IMG/VR virus record: IMGVR_UViG_2534682294_000013
Reading direction: 5' to 3' (one strand)
Length of the DNA: 39,485 nt
From: a virus
Lineage: Duplodnaviria; Heunggongvirae; Uroviricota; Caudoviricetes
The first letter of the stretch is position 1. Each line of letters starts with the position of its first letter. The translations under genes were made by a program, and so were the position numbers. This document shows, piece by piece, positions 33,418 through 39,485 of this stretch. The notes beneath the pieces are model-generated. The model saw only the letters and a list, made by a program, of their open reading frames with translations, searched no databases and was not told where the DNA came from.

Positions 33418-34800
33418 TTAGTTCTGCACTTCTTGAGAGGTGAATTGTTGCTGGCAACGGCGTTTGCCCTGGGCCAGCTGTTCCATAACGGTTTTCAGAT
33501 TGTGCGTCGTGAGTGAGTAGTAGCGTTTAGCGATAATCGCGCTCAGCAAATAACAGATCGCCGGAACAATCGTGAATAGCGCAATAATGATGCTAATCGT
33601 GGCGCTGTTCTGCGCTTTTTCTGCCGCATCATATCCGCCATAAGCCAGCATCCAGCCGATAAGAGCGCCGCCGAAGGCCAACCCCAGTTTGAGCACAAAC
33701 AGCGTGCCAGCAAAACTGATCCCGGTCAGGCGTTTACCATTGCACCACTCGCCGTAGTCGACGGTATCGGACATCATTACCCACTGGATAGGTGTCACCA
33801 GTTGATGCAATACACCAATCACGAAGATGAAGACAAACATAGTGATGCTGGCCTGCATAGGAACAAAGAACATCGCGAGGCTAATCACTGCCAGCAGGGC
33901 GTTCGTCCACCAGAAGATAGTGACTTTACATTTCCAGTCGGTCAGCGGTTTTGCCAGTGCGGAACCAATCAGGTTACCCACGCAATAAGTGGTGAGAAAA
34001 GCGACAAACACTTCCGGCGTACCCAAAATCCATGTGACGTAATACATCATCGCTCCACCGCGGACGCACACCGCCAGGATATTGAAAATGGTTAGTAAAC
34101 CGACAATCCGCCACTGGTCGTTTTGCCAGATATCACGTAAATCTTCCCGCATAGACGTCGTTGTAGGTGGTGCTTCAACGCGTTCTTTAGTGGTGAAGAA
34201 ACAGAATGCCAGCATCATGAATGCCACCACGGAAAGGACCGCGATACCGCCCTGGAAACCGAGTGGTTTATTATCACCGCCAATTAAATTAACCAGTGGC
34301 ATCATCAGAACAGTAGAGAGCATGCCTCCCGCGGTCGCCAGCACAAAACGCCAGGATTGCAGCGAGATACGCTGAGTCGGGTCATTGGTGATTACACCAC
34401 CCAATGCGCAGTAAGGGATATTGACGACGGTATAAAGTAAGGTAAGTAGGGTGTAAGTAATTGCTGCATAGATCATTTTGCCGTTCATACTGAGATCTGG
34501 CGTGCTATAGGCCAGTACACAGACGATCCCAAATGGCAGTGCGCCACACAGTACCCACGGACGAAATTTACCCCAGCGAGAGCGCGTTCGATCGGCCAAC
34601 AACCCCATGCAAGGATCGGAAATCGCATCCAGTGCACGAGCGACCAAAAACATGGTTCCGACAAATCCGGCAGGTATGCCAAAATTATCGGTATAAAAGA
34701 ACATCATATATAACATTACGTTATCGAAAATAATGTGGCTGGCGGCGTCTCCCATGCCATAACCAATTTTCTCTTTAACGGACAACACTTCACTCTTCAT
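33418..34800 (-). CDS. yicJ: GPH-family (glycoside-pentoside-hexuronide) cation symporter
   Basis: MKSEVLSVKEKIGYGMGDAASHIIFD... gives 460 aa from the ATG at 34800 (AAGGAA upstream). It lies 9 nt upstream of yicI. Confidence 0.92.
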   Translation of the reverse strand: MKSEVLSVKEKIGYGMGDAASHIIFDNVMLYMMFFYTDNFGIPAGFVGTMFLVARALDAISDPCMGLLADRTRSRWGKFRPWVLCGALPFGIVCVLAYSTPDLSMNGKMIYAAITYTLLTLLYTVVNIPYCALGGVITNDPTQRISLQSWRFVLATAGGMLSTVLMMPLVNLIGGDNKPLGFQGGIAVLSVVAFMMLAFCFFTTKERVEAPPTTTSMREDLRDIWQNDQWRIVGLLTIFNILAVCVRGGAMMYYVTWILGTPEVFVAFLTTYCVGNLIGSALAKPLTDWKCKVTIFWWTNALLAVISLAMFFVPMQASITMFVFIFVIGVLHQLVTPIQWVMMSDTVDYGEWCNGKRLTGISFAGTLFVLKLGLAFGGALIGWMLAYGGYDAAEKAQNSATISIIIALFTIVPAICYLLSAIIAKRYYSLTTHNLKTVMEQLAQGKRRCQQQFTSQEVQN

Positions 34801-35033
34801 CTGCTTTTCCTTGATGCTATAGGGGTGCTGAGACCGATAACGCATTTTGTAAACCATCCCTGTGAGAGCGAATATTCCGATATCTGGTTATTAATTTATG
34901 ATTCTTGTTTTATGTGATCGTGGTAGCGTTAATTCCGCTCATATATCATTGTAAAATATGAGTTTTATATGAATTATAATGCTTTCGTGATAATACGCTG
35001 CGTGTATTAGGCGGAAAAAACTGATCTGGGGGA

Positions 35034-35061
35034 TGTAGAAACTCAAGGAAGTAGCTATAAT
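35034..35061 (+). promoter_or_regulatory. Candidate selC promoter
   Basis: A perfect TATAAT at 35056-35061 is followed by the GC-rich discriminator gcgccccgcc. A weak -35-like tgtaga lies 16 nt upstream. The tRNA 5' end is 31 nt downstream of the -10. Confidence 0.4.
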
Positions 35062-35092
35062 GCGCCCCGCCTCCATGTAGCAATCGAGGCGC

Positions 35093-35187
35093 GGAAGATC
35101 GTCGTCTCCGGTGAGGCGGCTGGACTTCAAATCCAGTTGGGGCCGCCAGCGGTCCCGGGCAGGTTCGACTCCTGTGATCTTCCGCCA
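35093..35187 (+). tRNA. selC: tRNA-Sec (selenocysteine, anticodon UCA)
   Basis: 95 nt, GGAAGATCGTCGTCTCCGGTGAGGCGGCTGGACTTCAAATCCAGTTGGGGCCGCCAGCGGTCCCGGGCAGGTTCGACTCCTGTGATCTTCCGCCA. It has the long variable arm, the extended acceptor stem, the TCA anticodon and an encoded CCA. Confidence 0.98.
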
Positions 35188-35349
35188 AACCTCATCCAGC
35201 CAGTTCCGAGATACTCCATAAAATACTTTATATTCAATACGATGAATAATCAGCTTGTCCGTAATAGTCCGAGATCATCTCCCTGAATCCGCGAAAAATA
35301 TGTATAGTAATGTGTATAGATTTTTTATACGTAGTTTTCAGTTATACAC

Positions 35350-36537
35350 ATGGCTCTAACCGATATACAGATCAAACGTGCAAAACCACAAGACAAACCA
35401 TACACATTGAACGATGGACAAGGTCTGTCATTGCTTATCAATCCCGATGGCTCGAAAGGCTGGCGTTTCCGTTTCCGGTTTGCAGGGAAAGCGCGGTTAA
35501 TGTCATTTGGCAGCTACGATTTAGTAAGCCTCGCAGAAGCACGTGAGAAGCGTGATATCGCCCGTAAGCAGGTTGCTAATGGCATTGACCCGGTAGAGGA
35601 ACGCAAAGCTTTAAGACTCGCTCAAAAGCTATCAACAGAAAATTCTTTCGAAGCAATATGTCGAGAATGGTATACCAACAAAGCTGATCGCTGGACTGTA
35701 GCCTATCGAGAAGAAATCATTAGGACATTCGAGCAGGATGTCTTCCCGTTCATTGGTAAACGTCCTATCAGTGAAATCAAACCATTAGAACTGCTTGAAG
35801 TATTGCGACGAATAGAGAAACGAGGAGCACTAGAGAAGACCAGAAAAGTGCGCCAAAGATGCGGTGAGGTCTTTCGTTATGCAATCATAACTGGCCGAGC
35901 TGAATACAACCCAGCACCTGATTTAGCTATCGCTCTGGCCGTTCCTAAGCCAAAACACCACCCATTTTTATCTGTCGAAGAGTTGCCTTATTTTATTCGG
36001 GATTTGGAGGCATACTCCGGCAGCATAATCACCAAAAATGCAACTAAGATAGTTATGCTTACTGGTGTAAGAACGCAGGAGATGCGCTTTGCTACGTGGG
36101 AAGAGGTTGATTTGGATAAGGAGGTTTGGGAGATACCAGCGGAACGTATGAAAATGCGTAGGCCTCACATTGTTCCTTTATCTACTCAGGTAGTTGACCT
36201 TTTTAAACAGCTCAAACCAATTACCGGTCATTACCCTTACATCTTTATTGGCAGGAACAACCGTAGCAAACCGATCTCGAAAGAAAGTGTTTCACAAGTG
36301 ATTGAGTTACTTGGTTACAAAGGCCGTGCTACAGGTCATGGATTTAGACATACAATGTCAACAATATTACATGAACAAGGGTTTGACAGTGCCTGGATTG
36401 AGATGCAATTAGCACATGTTGATAAAAATTCTATTCGTGGAACATACAATCACGCACAATATTTAGAAAATAGACGCGCAATGCTTCAGTGGTATAGTAA
36501 CTTCATATTTAATAAAATTAGTGAAGACACACTTTGA
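35350..36537 (+). CDS. int: P4-family tyrosine integrase
   Basis: 395 aa with the N-terminal arm-binding domain MALTDIQIKRAKPQDKPYTLNDGQGLSLLINPDGSKGWRFRF. The catalytic residues are in TGVRTQEMR, HGFRHT and IRGTYNH. It is adjacent to a tRNA gene. Confidence 0.93.
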   Translation: MALTDIQIKRAKPQDKPYTLNDGQGLSLLINPDGSKGWRFRFRFAGKARLMSFGSYDLVSLAEAREKRDIARKQVANGIDPVEERKALRLAQKLSTENSFEAICREWYTNKADRWTVAYREEIIRTFEQDVFPFIGKRPISEIKPLELLEVLRRIEKRGALEKTRKVRQRCGEVFRYAIITGRAEYNPAPDLAIALAVPKPKHHPFLSVEELPYFIRDLEAYSGSIITKNATKIVMLTGVRTQEMRFATWEEVDLDKEVWEIPAERMKMRRPHIVPLSTQVVDLFKQLKPITGHYPYIFIGRNNRSKPISKESVSQVIELLGYKGRATGHGFRHTMSTILHEQGFDSAWIEMQLAHVDKNSIRGTYNHAQYLENRRAMLQWYSNFIFNKISEDTL

Positions 36538-36546
36538 TTTATAAAT

Positions 36547-36576
36547 AAAAAGAGCCTCTTCCGAAGCTCTTTTTTA
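36547..36576. terminator. Bidirectional hairpin terminator shared by int and the convergent deaminase/small-ORF unit
   Basis: aaaaagagc-(10 nt loop)-gctcttttt with an A run on one side and a T run on the other. It lies 10 nt after the int stop and 6 nt after the small-ORF stop. Confidence 0.6.
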
Positions 36577-36581
36577 ATTGT

Positions 36582-36755
36582 TTATTTATTGTTCTTCAAT
36601 CTTTTATCTTCTTGTAAAACAAGATTATTTAACACTTTAATTGACTTGGAGGATAAATCATCTCCTCCTAACATATTTTTTTTCCATTCCGGCCATTCAT
36701 TAATTATTTTTTTAGTTGCAACCACATGTTTAATAAAACCATTTTCGATAGACAT
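36582..36755 (-). CDS. Small hypothetical protein (57 aa), translationally coupled to the deaminase gene
   Basis: Not in the ORF track because it is under 60 aa. The ATG at 36755 is 1 nt after the deaminase TAA, with AGGAG 6 nt upstream. Translation: MSIENGFIKHVVATKKIINEWPEWKKNMLGGDDLSSKSIKVLNNLVLQEDKRLKNNK. The stop is at 36584-36582, followed by a terminator hairpin. Confidence 0.55.
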   Translation of the reverse strand: MSIENGFIKHVVATKKIINEWPEWKKNMLGGDDLSSKSIKVLNNLVLQEDKRLKNNK

Positions 36756-36756
36756 G

Positions 36757-38277
36757 TTAAACTCCTATGATCTTTGCGAATAAGTTAACAGAAATCTGCT
36801 CTCTTTCCAAGTAAGAAATAGGCAACAGTGATATTCTTAATGACGAATTAGACTCAGTCCATTTAACAACATTTCCCGACTTATCTTTTCTCTTAATTTT
36901 ATTACCACTTCCATTAACAATGGAAAATAGATTAAAATAGACTCGTGGACCTATTCCAATAAAAGGTTCGAAAAGCACCTTTCCTTGGTTTTTTTCATCA
37001 TTAGTTATTGATTCTGAATGAAATTCATAAGCCTTACTTTTTGGATATGGCTCTATGTAAACCACCCTCTTTATTCCCGAAGCTATAATATGCTTAGCGC
37101 AGTTGTGGCATGGGAAAGTAGTGCAATATATATAAGCATCTTGAGTACTAATATTTGTTCTAGCGCATGCTAAAATAGCTTCCATTTCAGCATGCACCAC
37201 ACGACCATATTCCGTAATATCTTGAATCAGGCTGTTATTGAGGATTCTCTCAAAATTATCACGAGATTTTCTAGGTATTTGATTGAGAATATCATGTATA
37301 ATTTCTCTTTTTTGTTTAGCATTCGAATCAAAACCTCTTACATAGTCCCTTCCTTCCGGATAGTCTTCATAAATTTCGTTCTCTGCATTAAAATATGGCC
37401 AGTATAAACCACCACCAGACTTAGGAACATCATTAGCACCAGTTGACATAATAGCGTAATTTTTTGCTAATACAGCTCCAACTTGTCTTGATAAATCAGC
37501 AGATCTCAAAGCTGAAGAAAAGGCCATATACATTGCATATTCATCAAATGTTGGCGTAATAAAAGGATTACCGAATAGCAAATCAAAAACTCTTTTTATA
37601 TCATTATTAAGTTTATCATCTCGGCCATCTTGGTTTAAAAAGAAATCAGCCAAATGAAATGTATCTCTGGTATGCTGCCCATGCCCAGACTCTTCATCTT
37701 CATCTCTAGCAATCAATAACGCTGCTTTATCTTCTGGAATTCCTTTATTACGAATTAAATTATCTAACCTGCGACTCTCATCAGAAAAAATACCAAACAA
37801 TAAAAATCCCGAGCCATATACTTCTCTTAATTTATACACCTCTTCTGGATGCTTTATTGAATTTATAACATATGCAATTCCTTTTTTATTTATTTGTAAA
37901 CGTGCATGCTTTGCCCTAATCTCATTAATTTTAGCTATTGCTCCAAGAGCCAATATATAATTACATTCACTATCCTCCCTCAGTTTATTTCCCTTAGTCA
38001 TTAAGCCATCAATTCTTTGGTAATTATCTGTATAATCTCCATTACCTAAGAGCTCAGCTATCACATCAGATGAAATCCGAACTTCAGAACATTCAAATTT
38101 ATATAAGGATAATCTATCTCTTATTTTTTTTGTAATTGCTTCTAGGTCTGTGCCAACGGAAGAAACTAACCCTATTACCATTTCTGCTAAAGGTCCTGTG
38201 GATTGCTTATCCTCCCCTGAGTTTTTTAAAAGCTGAGGTGCTTCTTTATTCAATTCTGTTATCTTTGTAATTTTCAT
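36757..38277 (-). CDS. Nucleotide-kinase-like / deoxycytidylate (dCMP/dCTP)-type deaminase fusion protein; candidate anti-phage nucleotide-depletion effector
   Basis: 506-aa ORF. The C-terminal half carries the zinc deaminase signature RSADLSRQVGAVL ... VVHAEMEAI (H362, E364; nt 37194-37177) ... FPCHNCAKHIIASGIKRVVY (C390, C393). The N-terminal half has a degenerate P-loop GLVSSVGTD (no Lys) and a small-NMP-kinase-like stretch INSIKHPEEVYKLREVYGSGFLLFGIFSDESRRLDNLIRNKG. The gene is AT-rich and sits in the satellite cargo slot. Confidence 0.8.
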   Translation of the reverse strand: MKITKITELNKEAPQLLKNSGEDKQSTGPLAEMVIGLVSSVGTDLEAITKKIRDRLSLYKFECSEVRISSDVIAELLGNGDYTDNYQRIDGLMTKGNKLREDSECNYILALGAIAKINEIRAKHARLQINKKGIAYVINSIKHPEEVYKLREVYGSGFLLFGIFSDESRRLDNLIRNKGIPEDKAALLIARDEDEESGHGQHTRDTFHLADFFLNQDGRDDKLNNDIKRVFDLLFGNPFITPTFDEYAMYMAFSSALRSADLSRQVGAVLAKNYAIMSTGANDVPKSGGGLYWPYFNAENEIYEDYPEGRDYVRGFDSNAKQKREIIHDILNQIPRKSRDNFERILNNSLIQDITEYGRVVHAEMEAILACARTNISTQDAYIYCTTFPCHNCAKHIIASGIKRVVYIEPYPKSKAYEFHSESITNDEKNQGKVLFEPFIGIGPRVYFNLFSIVNGSGNKIKRKDKSGNVVKWTESNSSLRISLLPISYLEREQISVNLFAKIIGV

Positions 38278-38475
38278 ATGAAGTCATTCATCCAGTGAAG
38301 ATACAAAACATTTTTATAAATAATTCTTAGCATGTTTTCTATGTTTTCATTAAATTTTTTGAATTACCTCATGTTTTACATTTAAGCAACACAAGGTAAA
38401 CAACTGTTATATAAGAAAATTGAAAGCATAATGAATGATGTAGTTGGCTGTCACGTCTTCCCACTTCGTAGGGCG

Positions 38476-38490
38476 GATTCAGGCTGAATC
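38476..38490. repeat. 15-bp perfect palindrome in the cos-proximal non-coding region
   Basis: gattcag-g-ctgaatc has 7-bp arms around a single central base. That is too tight for a hairpin and is more consistent with a dimeric protein-binding site. Confidence 0.4.
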
Positions 38491-38734
38491 ATAGATAGTT
38501 TTAGACCTCTTATAGGACCGAATGTATAAGATGAAGGTATTAGAGGAGCTGAGCGCCTTCAAAACCGCCACTCAGTATCTAAACCGGGCAATACTTTCTC
38601 GCCCCTAACTTAGCCACTCATGGGCTCATCACGCCATCAAACATTACTGCACGATCACTAATACTCGTTCGAAACGGCACAGTACTACGGTACACCAAGT
38701 CCCGCAAAAATAAATACATTACCGCTGGCGCGCA

Positions 38735-38753
38735 GTGCTTTCCCCGCCTCGCC
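38735..38753 (-). other. P2/P4-type cos cohesive-end sequence (19 nt)
   Basis: The minus strand reads GGCGAGGCGGGGAAAGCAC. This is identical to the 19-nt cohesive end I recall for P2 and P4. Its orientation (psu -> cos -> cargo -> int) matches the P4 map. Confidence 0.8.
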
Positions 38754-38853
38754 CGCCCGCTTTGCGGGGCGGTTTTAATGCAGTTTCACTGACACGCTCA
38801 GGCCGCGCCGGGAATGGCGCGGTCTGCAGAAAATGAGGCAGGAAAACGCATGC

Positions 38854-38887
38854 AAAGCCATGCACCTTATCGATGCATGGCTTTTTT
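38854..38887. terminator. Strong hairpin between psu and cos
   Basis: aaagccatgca-(9 nt loop)-tgcatggcttt forms an 11-bp perfect stem. The T6 tract is on the + strand. On the psu (minus) strand only uuugcaugcguuuu follows. It lies 31 nt downstream of the psu stop. Confidence 0.55.
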
Positions 38888-38917
38888 CAGTAAAAACGGG
38901 CGGATTTTCGGGGAGTT

Positions 38918-39485
38918 TTACACAGACTGATGTGATGCCAGTTGCGCACTTTTACGCGAAAAAATCATGTTCTGCGCAGGGGTGAATTTTTCACGGCTGT
39001 CATCCACCGAAGCCGCGTCAGGCCTGAATCCGATGGTCGTTAAAATGTCGCTATCCTGTGCGGAATAATTAATTTTTTCCCCCTTCGCAAGCCAGGACAG
39101 GAGGGCTTCACGCAGGGCATCTGTGGCACGCTGTATGGCACAGTTTCGGGCAATGGCCGTCAGCTCACTGTAACCCATCAGCTCCGGTGCCAGTGCGGCC
39201 GCCAGTACTGTGCCGTGCTGCTGCATAAAATCATTCAGCCGGTCGCGGATGCTGATGTGCTGAACGGCTTCATGCGAACGAATATAACGACCGGCGGCCT
39301 GATTCACCTGCCATTTTCTGACTTCGATAATATTGCGTAATTCGTCCAGGCGGCTGACGTTTCTGCCTTCTCCTGACAGAAGCCGCAGATATTCCTGTTC
39401 GGCCGCTGCCAGCTCATTTTTGCGTTGCAGCCATGCTGCTTTGTTATTCTGACAGGTGTCAAAGGCCTGCTGTAAGGCTGTGCTT
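38918..39485 (-). CDS. psu: Polarity suppression / capsid decoration protein Psu of P4-like satellites (5' end outside window)
   Basis: The frame is open from the window edge: STALQQAFDTCQNNKAAWLQRKNELAAAEQEYLRLLSGEGRNVSRLDELRNIIEVRKWQVNQAAGRYIRSHEAVQHISIRDRLNDFMQQHG...SRKSAQLASHQSV. This matches my recollection of the 190-aa P4 Psu, so the start codon would lie about 5 nt beyond the window. The track shows only the part from an internal GTG. Confidence 0.85.
   Translation of the reverse strand, partial: STALQQAFDTCQNNKAAWLQRKNELAAAEQEYLRLLSGEGRNVSRLDELRNIIEVRKWQVNQAAGRYIRSHEAVQHISIRDRLNDFMQQHGTVLAAALAPELMGYSELTAIARNCAIQRATDALREALLSWLAKGEKINYSAQDSDILTTIGFRPDAASVDDSREKFTPAQNMIFSRKSAQLASHQSV

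Follow-up and report, generated by a model that had tools for sequence, protein, structure and literature searches.

The closest described systems are the AvcD/DcdV deaminases, in which both domains of the protein are required, dCMP and dCTP are both deaminated, and an RNA inhibitor is encoded on the 5′ side of the deaminase gene (bioRxiv 10.1101/2021.03.31.437871). For those Vibrio systems that have been tested, this inhibitor is the sRNA AvcI, encoded 5′ of avcD. The AvcI/DifV antitoxin lies immediately 5′ of avcD on the same strand, is co-transcribed with it, and measures 152-174 nt in its minimal form and <300 nt at full length; AvcI sequences are reported to be non-conserved (bioRxiv 10.1101/2021.03.31.437871). 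Homologues are toxic when uninhibited (bioRxiv 10.1101/2021.03.31.437871), and in the AvcID type III toxin-antitoxin system the deaminase without its cognate RNA causes filamentation. Once transcription is shut off, AvcI decays and AvcD becomes active (PMC10511110). Activity is abolished in the DcdV zinc-site mutants E384A and C411A/C414A (bioRxiv 10.1101/2021.03.31.437871), and the published inactivating Walker A variants, S52K in DcdV and S49K in AvcD, introduce a lysine into the motif. The system of Tal et al. 2022, as it is cited in PMC10511110, consists of one catalytic gene, whose product depletes dCTP upon infection. The silencing and release of dCTP deaminases are only partly understood. 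The defence hotspot of P4 is the interval between cos/psu and int, and adjoins cos (PMC9122126). For a P4-like satellite, avcD has been reported earlier from Enterobacter cloacae (PMC13612085), which was the sole such report returned by the literature search.

The window, i.e. the whole stretch of 39,485 nt that was analysed, ends in part of an element of this kind. The locus is very probably the defence cargo of a P4-like satellite prophage at selC, and would comprise a small operon, with a promoter and a terminator of its own, that encodes an AvcD/DcdV-type deaminase and a 57-aa partner. The features of the region are as follows.

35093..35187, + strand: tRNA-Sec gene, selC (ARAGORN; Rfam RF01852, 83.8 bits; RefSeq annotation of the identical locus)
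35350..36537, + strand: P4-type tyrosine integrase gene, int (Pfam Arm-DNA-bind_3, Phage_int_M and Phage_integrase, E 1e-26 to 1e-36)
36547..36574, - strand: GC-rich hairpin and U-run, predicted intrinsic terminator of the deaminase/small-ORF operon (fold -15.9 kcal/mol, z -5.5)
36582..36755, - strand: 57-aa small ORF with core motif FIKHVVATKKIINEWPEWKK (RefSeq: hypothetical protein)
36757..38277, - strand: avcD-type anti-phage dCTP deaminase gene, 506 aa, ATG start (RefSeq WP_000704989.1; NF041025; PADLOC; phrog_9198)
36913..37548, - strand: C-terminal zinc-dependent dCMP-deaminase-fold domain, ~aa 244-455
37099-37113, - strand: PCHNC, aa 389-393
37186-37194, - strand: HAE, aa 362-364
37573..38187, - strand: N-terminal P-loop nucleotide-kinase-like domain, ~aa 31-235
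38146-38172, - strand: degenerate Walker A GLVSSVGTD, aa 36-44
38278..38545, - strand: AT-rich non-coding leader of the cargo (G+C 0.30-0.31)
38313..38341, - strand: promoter-like TAGAAA-17 nt-TATAAA (read from the sequence)
38425..38454, - strand: second promoter-like site, GTGACA-18 nt-TATGCT (consensus scan, 9/12 matches, in a region with fewer such sites than shuffles)
38735..38753, - strand: P2/P4 cos core GGCGAGGCGGGGAAAGCAC (exact string), the other border of the cargo slot
38854..38884, - strand: hairpin past the psu stop codon (-24.4 kcal/mol, z -3.6; kept in relatives L005 and L006)
38918..39485, - strand: psu, polarity suppression protein gene, running past the window end (Pfam Psu, E 4.5e-63)

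The selC tRNA gene is the integration site of the satellite, and the order of the element from there is int, cargo, cos, psu, delta and alpha primase. One border of the cargo slot is formed by int. In the RefSeq annotation psu is a 573-nt CDS, and beyond it the identical RefSeq locus continues with delta, Icd-like, DUF5375 and alpha-type primase genes. The deaminase gene thus lies between psu/cos and int of a P4-like element at a tRNA gene, the position that defines the hotspot. The cos core is kept in five P4-borne relatives (L004, L005, L006, L084 and L086), and the Yersinia and Serratia copies carry the variant GGGGGTAG. Among P4-borne relatives, the stretch from cos to a conserved upstream block varies in length and content. 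The composition of the cargo is foreign, with a G+C content of ~0.32 versus ~0.5 elsewhere.

These results bear on a sequence-only reading of the same DNA, which had described satellite-borne cargo in a variable int-to-psu slot. All four landmarks (tRNA-Sec, P4-type int, cos and psu) were located, in agreement with the published hotspot (PMC9122126). The reading's estimate of about one third G+C in the interval against about one half in the flanks was borne out by measured values of 0.28-0.36 over 36450-38550 and 0.43-0.57 on either side. It had also described a single ORF filling the interval. The 506-aa ORF is present at 36757..38277 on the minus strand; however, it is not the sole occupant, as the interval also contains the 57-aa ORF, a terminator and, from the deaminase ATG to cos, ~455 nt without coding sequence.

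The 506-aa protein matches the NCBIfam equivalog NF041025, "anti-phage dCTP deaminase", with 470.7 bits (cut-off 400) over aa 32-453, corresponding to profile positions 1-432 of 437. It also matches the PADLOC dCTPase model PDLC02373 (E 1.2e-168) and phrog_9198 (E 3e-144). RefSeq assigns the name anti-phage dCTP deaminase to the identical protein in 12 of 5426 complete E. coli genomes, and many of the 7859 homologues found at E<=1e-10 bear the same name. Identity to other annotated family members is only ~48-57% overall, and 51-57% to those of Photorhabdus, Vibrio and Pseudomonas. Given the curated profiles, the RefSeq name on the identical protein and the earlier report of avcD from a P4-like satellite, the protein adds a routine case to a defence family that is already known. 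Judged by these matches, the protein is a plain, already annotated AvcD/DcdV family member and not a divergent one. The sequence-only reading had left a choice between a member and a divergent relative of the class that joins kinase-like and deaminase domains; the first was upheld over the full length by NF041025 and PADLOC, and the second was not, at 51-57% identity. Profile, PADLOC and structure comparisons, which it had named as checks, all agreed with the assignment. An anti-phage function of the protein would be expected by analogy with its homologues.

Both domains are supported by fold comparison, which places the C-terminal domain within the dCMP-deaminase fold and bears out the earlier suggestion that the N-terminal ~230 aa are kinase-like. 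No full-length relative was found among solved structures by sequence and fold searches. The zinc-deaminase signature that had been read from the sequence, HAE and PCHNC followed by the tail AKHIIASGIKRVVYIEPY (aa 394-411), was found at the residues given, so that the zinc site H-A-E / P-C-x-x-C is intact. Further motifs are RSADLSRQVGAVL at aa 258-270 and STGAND at aa 278-283. Residues H362, E364, C390 and C393 are invariant among 36 family members, and T43 is conserved in at least 90% of them. The motif GLVSSVGTD had been described as a P-loop that lacks the Walker A lysine, and T43 appears to occupy the position of that lysine. From their spacing, S52 of DcdV and S49 of AvcD probably match T43. 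The missing lysine is a family trait and no peculiarity of the present copy. The separation of STGAND from HAE, noted before as about 80 residues and longer than in housekeeping enzymes, was counted as 78 residues, and the matching gap in HMMER alignments is ~72 residues here versus ~23 in the Streptococcus mutans (S. mutans) enzyme and ~56 in that of T4. On these alignments the insertion between the two motifs is real.

The C-terminal domain matches dCMP_cyt_deam_1, and among solved structures it comes closest to housekeeping or phage dCMP deaminases, as would be expected of a metabolic ComEB/Dctd-type enzyme that supplies dTTP synthesis and resides in a mobile element by chance. However, the ComEB model TIGR02571 reaches only 67.1 bits, far under its cut-off of 219.45, and covers aa 359-417 only. 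The protein is also longer, by a kinase-like domain of 230 aa and an insertion of 50 aa, its presence in so small a fraction of complete E. coli genomes and its location in AT-rich foreign DNA within a defence hotspot do not suit a housekeeping role, and neither does the toxicity of uninhibited homologues. Such a role is highly improbable. A second enzymatic alternative is a nucleic-acid-editing or polymorphic-toxin deaminase (MafB19/APOBEC-like) that would mutate phage DNA or RNA and not deplete free nucleotides. Pfam MafB19-deam does match above its cut-off (36.7 bits), but only over 61 residues at the zinc motif that the families share (profile positions 46-108 of 142), and dCMP deaminases outscore it in sequence as well as in fold comparisons. 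A secretion or toxin-delivery domain is absent, the N-terminus being a kinase fold, and the biochemistry of homologues gives dCMP and dCTP as the substrates (bioRxiv 10.1101/2021.03.31.437871). An editing enzyme is scarcely credible here, and the protein is predicted to be a nucleotide-depleting deaminase of the AvcD/DcdV family.

The hairpin that follows psu is probably the terminator of the P4 late operon, and the cargo therefore needs its own promoter. The TAGAAA-17 nt-TATAAA element is the best-conserved block of the upstream region, kept in 5/5 compared relatives (L003, L004, L083, L084 and L005), and is probably the deaminase promoter. The GTGACA-18 nt-TATGCT site could conceivably, if used, give a leader of ~140 nt. 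At the other end, 0/200 shuffles of the hairpin at 36547..36574 fold as well as the native sequence; a pattern-based terminator scan overlooked this element, and RNA folding confirmed it as a terminator. On the opposite strand the same hairpin sits just past int. The terminator after psu, the conserved promoter-like block and the terminator after the small ORF suggest that the cargo is best explained as a transcription unit of its own. Upstream of the deaminase gene ~190 nt can be aligned with the closest relatives, at 62-69% identity versus 85-86% for coding sequence, and this is the fastest-diverging part of the module.

An AvcI-like RNA was sought in the same region. Rfam searches over 34800-39485 returned only tRNA-Sec and a chance snoRNA match. 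The 143 nt and 443 nt upstream of the gene show no folding stability beyond that of their shuffles (z -1.8 and -1.4), and a local hairpin at ~38366-38397 is not retained in relatives. A profile of the upstream region built from the 340 nt conserved in nine Photorhabdus loci found no match in any other genus, and the RNAalifold consensus of the Photorhabdus region is weak (-5.4 kcal/mol). In three P4-borne relatives only 154-215 nt lie between the start of the cos core and the ATG. Since no AvcI-like RNA was recognised, no fold signal was found, divergence is fast and the distance from cos to the ATG is short, the published trigger mechanism may not carry over unchanged. As AvcI sequences are reported to be non-conserved and the Photorhabdus profile matched no other genus, an RNA of this kind may nevertheless be encoded here.

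By analogy with the tested homologues, the deaminase would be present in an uninfected cell and held inactive. Shut-off of host transcription by a lytic phage would lead to loss of a labile inhibitor, and the freed deaminase would convert dCTP and dCMP to dUTP and dUMP. Collapse of the deoxycytidine pool would then be expected to cause failure of phage DNA replication and of the production of viable virions. The 57-aa protein, predicted to form a helix - W-P-x-W-K - helix, would be translationally coupled to the deaminase.

The small ORF begins with an ATG located 1 nt beyond the deaminase TAA, with AGGAG 9 nt upstream of it. Among 80 deaminase loci, which come from many phyla, 63 have a homologue at this position; the ORF is absent from the other 17, and also from the second E. 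coli type, L002. No off-target matches below E=0.5 were found in 1.05 Mb of six-frame translation. The homologues share the core motif F-x-x-H-L…V-x-x-W-P-x-W-K. The tail is variable and is predicted with low AlphaFold confidence, and the predicted structure as a whole (pLDDT 68) is helix - WP - helix. There is no family entry for the ORF in Pfam, NCBIfam or PADLOC, and its match to phrog_38465, for which a function is not assigned, is weak. Nothing meaningful was returned when solved structures were searched with the small-ORF profile, and no natural fusion of the deaminase and the small protein is present among the proteins returned by the search. An apparent in-frame fusion was, however, seen in Methylocucumis oryzae (L059). 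A likeness of the small protein to the villin headpiece was rejected as chance, since Pfam VHP matched 3 of 40 members with a best E of 0.0035, and on comparison with the headpiece sequence the likeness shrinks to a 5-bit P-x-W-K-Q match.

An ORF of this length, which most pipelines leave uncalled and for which only 28 database proteins were significant in a profile search, could instead be a conserved 3′ RNA or DNA element, such as a terminator or an mRNA-stability element, or a set of chance ORFs. Against this, it is the amino-acid sequence that is conserved, with the W, W and K of the core motif invariant, in genomes that range from AT-rich enterobacteria to Planctomycetota, Myxococcota and Firmicutes. 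Substitutions between close copies are biased to the third codon position (2/2/9 and 4/2/9), and nucleotide identity to the nearest relatives is 84-85%, as in coding sequence, versus 62-69% in the non-coding flank. Shine-Dalgarno-like motifs precede 52 of 60 starts compared with 15% of control positions, and at 45 of the 60 the start overlaps the stop region of the deaminase gene, with a reading frame that differs between loci. Each of the four homologues that turned up through a protein search only is encoded immediately 3′ of a deaminase gene. A non-coding or chance origin is unlikely, and this pattern of conservation shows the small ORF to be a conserved protein-coding partner of most family members.

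The small protein may bind or regulate the deaminase; it could, for instance, be a labile inhibitor, a factor in assembly or an adaptor for a sensor. More broadly, it is proposed, tentatively, that most AvcD-type systems have an unrecognised second component, a micro-protein of 50-75 aa (helix - W-P-x-W-K - helix) whose translation would be coupled to that of avcD, at its 3′ end. This protein might bind the deaminase and set its activity or activation threshold, for example as a protease-labile inhibitor beside the AvcI RNA or, in some lineages, in place of it. Phage protection was obtained with AvcD constructs bearing a C-terminal His tag (PMC10511110). Because such a tag probably disrupts the overlapping downstream ORF and the tagged protein was protective, neither catalysis nor defence as such is likely to require the small protein. 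A simple either/or relation between the small ORF and AvcI was considered and rejected, as the ORF-free gaps upstream of the deaminase gene have a median of 189 nt in loci with the small ORF and 198 nt in loci without it; it is also countered by Vibrio loci that carry the small ORF. A small protein downstream of avcD is unmentioned in the DcdV preprint, the 2023 follow-up, a 2022 V. cholerae paper and a 2025 review.

The same cargo was found between cos and int in Scandinavium, Raoultella, Kosakonia and Yersinia. DNA similarity searches of the E. coli genome collection detected two avcD types only, and H10407, an ETEC strain with a tested homologue, was not among the matches. The second type, L002, encodes a protein of 589 aa and is located beside restriction genes near yecA. 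That P4-like elements of several genera carry the module, that AvcID behaves as a type III toxin-antitoxin pair (bioRxiv 10.1101/2021.03.31.437871), and that the gop-beta-cII cargo of P4 itself is also toxin-antitoxin-like (PMC9122126) would fit a module that serves mainly for addiction, stabilising the satellite, or as a weapon against a P2-type helper, and not for host defence against unrelated phages. However, the same two-gene module also occurs outside satellites, amid unrelated genes, in Lonsdalea, Pantoea, Acinetobacter and Pseudomonas, and tested homologues protect against lytic coliphages (PMC10511110). A mainly addictive or helper-directed function is very unlikely. Addiction and defence are mutually compatible roles.

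The deaminase adds one further case of nucleotide-depletion immunity in the P4 hotspot, at selC of some O157:H7 and other E. coli, and belongs to a cargo that travels with P4-like elements in Escherichia as well as in Scandinavium, Raoultella, Kosakonia and Yersinia. Of more worth than the deaminase itself is the conserved, unnamed micro-protein gene that directly follows avcD in ~4/5 of the sampled family, across several phyla. As AvcI sequences are reported to be non-conserved between genera, a conserved protein partner would be a testable handle on regulation. If the proposal of a second protein component is true, the system has been studied and catalogued minus one part, published C-terminal tags on AvcD would have disturbed the small protein, and the cloning, tagging and cataloguing of the system (DefenseFinder, PADLOC) should change.

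In comparison with known systems, the dCMP deaminases of S. mutans (2hvv), T4 (Cd, 1vq2) and human (DCTD, 2w4l) and the bifunctional dCMP/dCTP enzyme of PBCV-1 (7fh4) have no kinase-like domain, and the two halves of their deaminase core are far closer than in the present protein. They are biosynthetic, unlike the defence enzymes. The housekeeping dCTP deaminase of E. coli, Dcd, has an unrelated dUTPase-like fold, and vertebrate CDADC1 has deaminase domains in tandem and lacks a kinase-like one. Other cargo of the P4 hotspot (gop-beta-cII, retrons and restriction-modification systems; Rousset et al. 2022, PMC9122126) shares the slot, the AT-rich foreign character and the expected role in virus competition, but consists of other genes, with 0 occurrences of dCTP deaminase in that paper. 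The anti-phage dCTP deaminase of Tal et al. 2022, with its E. coli homologues, listed by DefenseFinder and PADLOC as a single-gene system, belongs to the same family by the PADLOC and NCBIfam models; the E. coli type L002 is 48% identical to the present deaminase and lacks the small ORF. AvcD/DcdV (V. cholerae VC0175 and V. parahaemolyticus; AvcID) has the same architecture of P-loop kinase-like and dCMP deaminase domains, the same H-A-E and P-C-x-x-C motifs, and a Walker A degenerate in the same way, the lysine being replaced by Ser or Thr. It falls in the same NCBIfam equivalog family, and Vibrio members are 53-55% identical to the present deaminase. The V. cholerae gene is located on VSP-I, whereas the present one is in a P4-like satellite, and an AvcI-like RNA was not recognised upstream here by Rfam, folding or comparison. 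In the descriptions covered, AvcID has two components and no downstream protein, whereas the small ORF is found both at the present locus and at the Vibrio loci L011, L012 and L022.

The 57 aa small ORF just 3′ of the deaminase gene shares with it the interval between a P4-type integrase on one side and a cos core and psu on the other, the surroundings described in the sequence-only reading of the window. The features are:

35093-35187, tRNA-Sec
35350-36537, P4-type integrase
36582-36755, minus strand, small ORF, 57 aa, ATG 1 nt after the deaminase TAA and preceded by AGGAG
36757..38277, minus strand, deaminase ORF, ATG start, 506 aa
deaminase residues 36-44, GLVSSVGTD
deaminase residues 258-270, RSADLSRQVGAVL
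deaminase residues 278-283, STGAND
deaminase residues 362-364, HAE
deaminase residues 389-393, PCHNC
38735-38753, P2/P4 cos core GGCGAGGCGGGGAAAGCAC
from 38918, past the window end, psu

The sequence-only reading had placed a 506 aa ORF with an ATG start at 36757..38277 on the minus strand, which is exact, as is the position of every motif it quoted. The AT-rich interval it described was measured as G+C of 0.28-0.36 over approximately 36450-38550, versus 0.43-0.57 either side. The long spacer between STGAND and HAE is also real, the gap between the halves of the deaminase core being ∼72 residues here, ∼56 in T4 Cd and ∼23 in the S. mutans enzyme in HMMER alignments with solved dCMP deaminases. 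The claim that a single ORF fills the interval needs correcting, as the small ORF shares the slot.

By every feature testable from sequence or structure, the protein belongs to the anti-phage dCTP deaminase (AvcD/DcdV) family. A profile search and a PADLOC run had been suggested as checks. The Pfam match (dCMP_cyt_deam_1, E 5.6e-20) is confined to the core of the deaminase, and the whole protein is recognised by defence-specific and annotation-specific libraries, with the PADLOC dCTPase model (E 1.2e-168) spanning aa 31-501 and the NCBIfam equivalog model NF041025 "anti-phage dCTP deaminase" scoring 470.7 bits against a cut-off of 400. The housekeeping ComEB model scored 67 bits in the NCBIfam search, below its cut-off of 219. 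H362, E364, C390 and C393 are invariant in the family alignment, and this active site, with the NF041025 and PADLOC matches, bears out the proposed kinase-like plus deaminase anti-phage class. The Walker-A lysine is missing as claimed; T43, the residue taken as its position, is at least 90% conserved in the family alignment, and the missing lysine is therefore a family trait. This agrees with V. cholerae DcdV, where filamentation was lost with the Walker-A variant S52K (Ser to Lys) and also with E384A and C411A/C414A (bioRxiv 10.1101/2021.03.31.437871). An AlphaFold model of the deaminase, with 36 family members as input, has a mean pLDDT of 80.5 and a pTM of 0.77, and none of the solved structures searched by sequence and fold spans both domains.

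Homologues at E≤1e-10 number 7859 among 5.8 billion proteins, and many are named anti-phage dCTP deaminase, also the RefSeq product name of the identical protein WP_000704989.1. The identical 2.2-kb locus is present in 12 of 5426 complete E. coli genomes, 7 of which are O157:H7. In PHROGs, the family is phrog_9198, annotated as function unknown, and full-length relatives (33-53% identical) were seen in only four phage records, NC_055911.1 and MW072790.1 (Burkholderia phage phiE094) and the faecal phage contigs MT838710.1 and MT839973.1. A second type of deaminase in E. coli occurs in CV839-06 (locus L002, 5215-6984) and in 17 further complete genomes of the species; it has an extended N-terminus, a length of 589 aa and 48% identity to the window deaminase. 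It lies next to yecA beside type I restriction and PD-(D/E)XK nuclease genes, outside any satellite.

RefSeq annotation of the identical locus gives a P4-like element with the order int, small ORF, deaminase, psu, ogr/delta-like, hypothetical, HTH regulator, Icd-like, DUF5375 and alpha-type primase-helicase. The interval from psu/cos to int is the P4 defence hotspot as defined by Rousset et al., which in P4 itself holds gop-beta-cII; the deaminase is not mentioned in that paper (PMC9122126). Carriage of avcD by a P4-like satellite of Enterobacter cloacae was reported in a 2026 survey (PMC13612085). The original finding is correct but not new, because the family was described in 2022, RefSeq already names the exact protein and P4-like carriage has already been reported.

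The same cargo lies between cos and a convergent integrase in Scandinavium and Raoultella (89-90% protein identity) and in Kosakonia, Yersinia and a "Vagococcus"-labelled contig (74-75%), and several related satellite loci have yicJ/yicI-like neighbours, as at selC. The labelled contig (Vagococcus sp. WN89Y, 138.5 kb) carries a P4-type cos, psu terminator, deaminase cargo and P4-type integrase typical of Enterobacterales, and its Firmicute label is probably contamination or mis-assignment. Satellites are not the module's only setting; in Lonsdalea, for instance, it lies between mnmE and hipBA. In Enterobacter sp. Cy-643 (L024, 5700-5752), ∼50 nt with 87-88% identity to E. coli tRNA-Sec lie ∼250 nt upstream of the deaminase; the selC region is thus used as well by a deaminase island of different organisation. 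In E. coli O157:H7 FRIK944 (L001, 21913-26157, past the window end), a second integrase, ISEc31 and a CP4-type yeeU/cbtA toxin-antitoxin remnant directly follow the P4-like element, indicating tandem islands at selC in these strains.

The small ORF is labelled hypothetical protein in RefSeq, and searching the protein directly yielded no more than nine close homologues. A clade-specific gene was nevertheless rejected, as homologues are present in most deaminase loci. Five close copies were made into an HMM and run on six-frame translations of 80 deaminase loci drawn from GTDB species genomes; most of these loci have a homologue on the same strand at the deaminase 3′-end, and at E<0.01 a broader profile detected it in 63 of the 80. 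With the window's own copy (again in L001) set aside, no off-target match to this broader profile fell below E=0.5 in 1.05 Mb. Homologues occur in hosts such as Pseudomonas, Photorhabdus, Vibrio, Acinetobacter, Morganella, Planctomycetota, Myxococcota, Desulfobacterota, Paenibacillaceae, Cohnella and Oscillospiraceae. Four homologues taken from a context-free profile search of the protein database (Pantoea, Acinetobacter, a metagenome contig and Pseudomonas) were all directly 3′ of a dCMP_cyt_deam_1 gene for 496-585 aa, with wholly different remaining neighbours. The 17 loci lacking the small ORF are chiefly the most distant; the second E. coli type also lacks it.

The predicted proteins of the 63 loci are 49-75 aa, encoded directly 3′ of the deaminase gene and frequently overlapping it. 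They share the core F-[LI]-x-H-L-x-x-[AS]-x-x-x-V-x-x-W-P-x-W-K-[KRQ], in which W21, W24 and K25 show no variation and P22 almost none; the leaders at the N-terminus and the tails at the C-terminus are variable. AlphaFold (pLDDT 68) predicts helices at 3-19 and 23-29 joined by a W-P turn, and a low-confidence tail. Pfam, NCBIfam and PADLOC hold no model of this family, all sources calling it hypothetical, and there is a weak match to phrog_38465 (annotated as function unknown). In the draft genome of Methylocucumis oryzae (L059, 2517-4112), the motif (…HVKQWPNWKKNVLGTF) is fused in frame to the deaminase C-terminus, a single case that could be a natural fusion or an assembly frameshift or error.

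A conserved small gene is coupled to the deaminase, and several features point to its translation. Substitutions between close copies fall mostly in the third codon position (2/2/9 and 4/2/9), and nucleotide identity to relatives is 84-85% for the small ORF and 85-86% for the deaminase gene, against 62-69% for upstream non-coding DNA. Of 60 small-ORF starts, 52 have a Shine-Dalgarno-like tetramer 5-17 nt upstream, compared with 15% of control positions within the deaminase gene. The start overlaps the deaminase gene end in 45 of the 60, 15 of these by the classic 4-nt ATGA, and is ≤10 nt downstream in 14 others. Independent gene callers predicted the ORF on several contigs.

The deaminase and small ORF form an operon. 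Hairpins follow the psu stop codon (-24.4 kcal/mol, z -3.6) and the small ORF (36547-36574; -15.9 kcal/mol, z -5.5, called the second, stronger one), making the cargo its own transcription unit. The latter hairpin is GC-rich, has a GGAA loop and is flanked by an A-run and, at its opposite end, a T-run. It separates the integrase and small-ORF genes, which are convergent, and therefore probably terminates both; a pattern-based terminator scan did not report it. The best-conserved upstream block is promoter-like (TAGAAA-17 nt-TATAAA, 38341..38313).

AvcD/DcdV deaminates dCTP and dCMP, requires both domains, and is kept inactive post-translationally by the sRNA AvcI/DifV, whose gene lies directly 5′ on the same strand; this RNA is far more abundant than the avcD message and is reported as non-conserved in sequence (bioRxiv 10.1101/2021.03.31.437871). 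When phage shuts off host transcription, labile AvcI decays and releases the enzyme; the dC pool collapses, with less replication and defective virions, and fast replicators like T7 can outrun the effect (PMC10511110). By analogy, we infer that the window locus may follow this logic, an inhibitor lost at transcription shut-off releasing a deaminase that would protect the lysogen and its satellite.

The inhibitor is the weak step. No recognisable AvcI was found upstream of the window deaminase by Rfam (no match), folding (no excess energy) or comparison with relatives. The nearest relatives have only ∼190 nt of upstream DNA in common, and in three P4-borne relatives the cos core starts only 154-215 nt from the deaminase start codon, leaving little room for a promoter and an RNA of at least 150 nt. 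The Photorhabdus loci L013-L021 and L025 have ∼340 nt of non-coding DNA upstream of the deaminase with 77% mean column identity (alignment A5), including a small hairpin with two covarying pairs (UA to CG) in columns 164-192. For Photorhabdus this region is a candidate for an AvcI-like RNA; its profile shows no similarity across genera, and no relative was detected elsewhere. As AvcI is reported as non-conserved and this profile is genus-bound, the negative searches do not amount to absence of AvcI from the window locus. In Pantoea ananatis (L090/L091, 637-1494), only 23 nt separate the deaminase start from the end of a 285 aa gene on the same strand that has no Pfam match. A 5′ sRNA would have no intergenic room there, and the arrangement suggests an operon of three genes in this lineage.

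The small protein suggests itself as a candidate regulatory partner of the deaminase. It is unlikely to be essential for catalysis or general defence, because published systems function with C-terminally tagged AvcD (PMC10511110) and some family members have no small ORF. Its family-wide occurrence somewhat raises the modest importance of the deaminase finding. No small ORF appears in four descriptions of the AvcID toxin-antitoxin pair (the DcdV preprint, the 2023 mechanism paper, a 2022 V. cholerae paper and a 2025 review). In those four, AvcID consists of AvcD and AvcI RNA only, whereas the window locus carries the small ORF.
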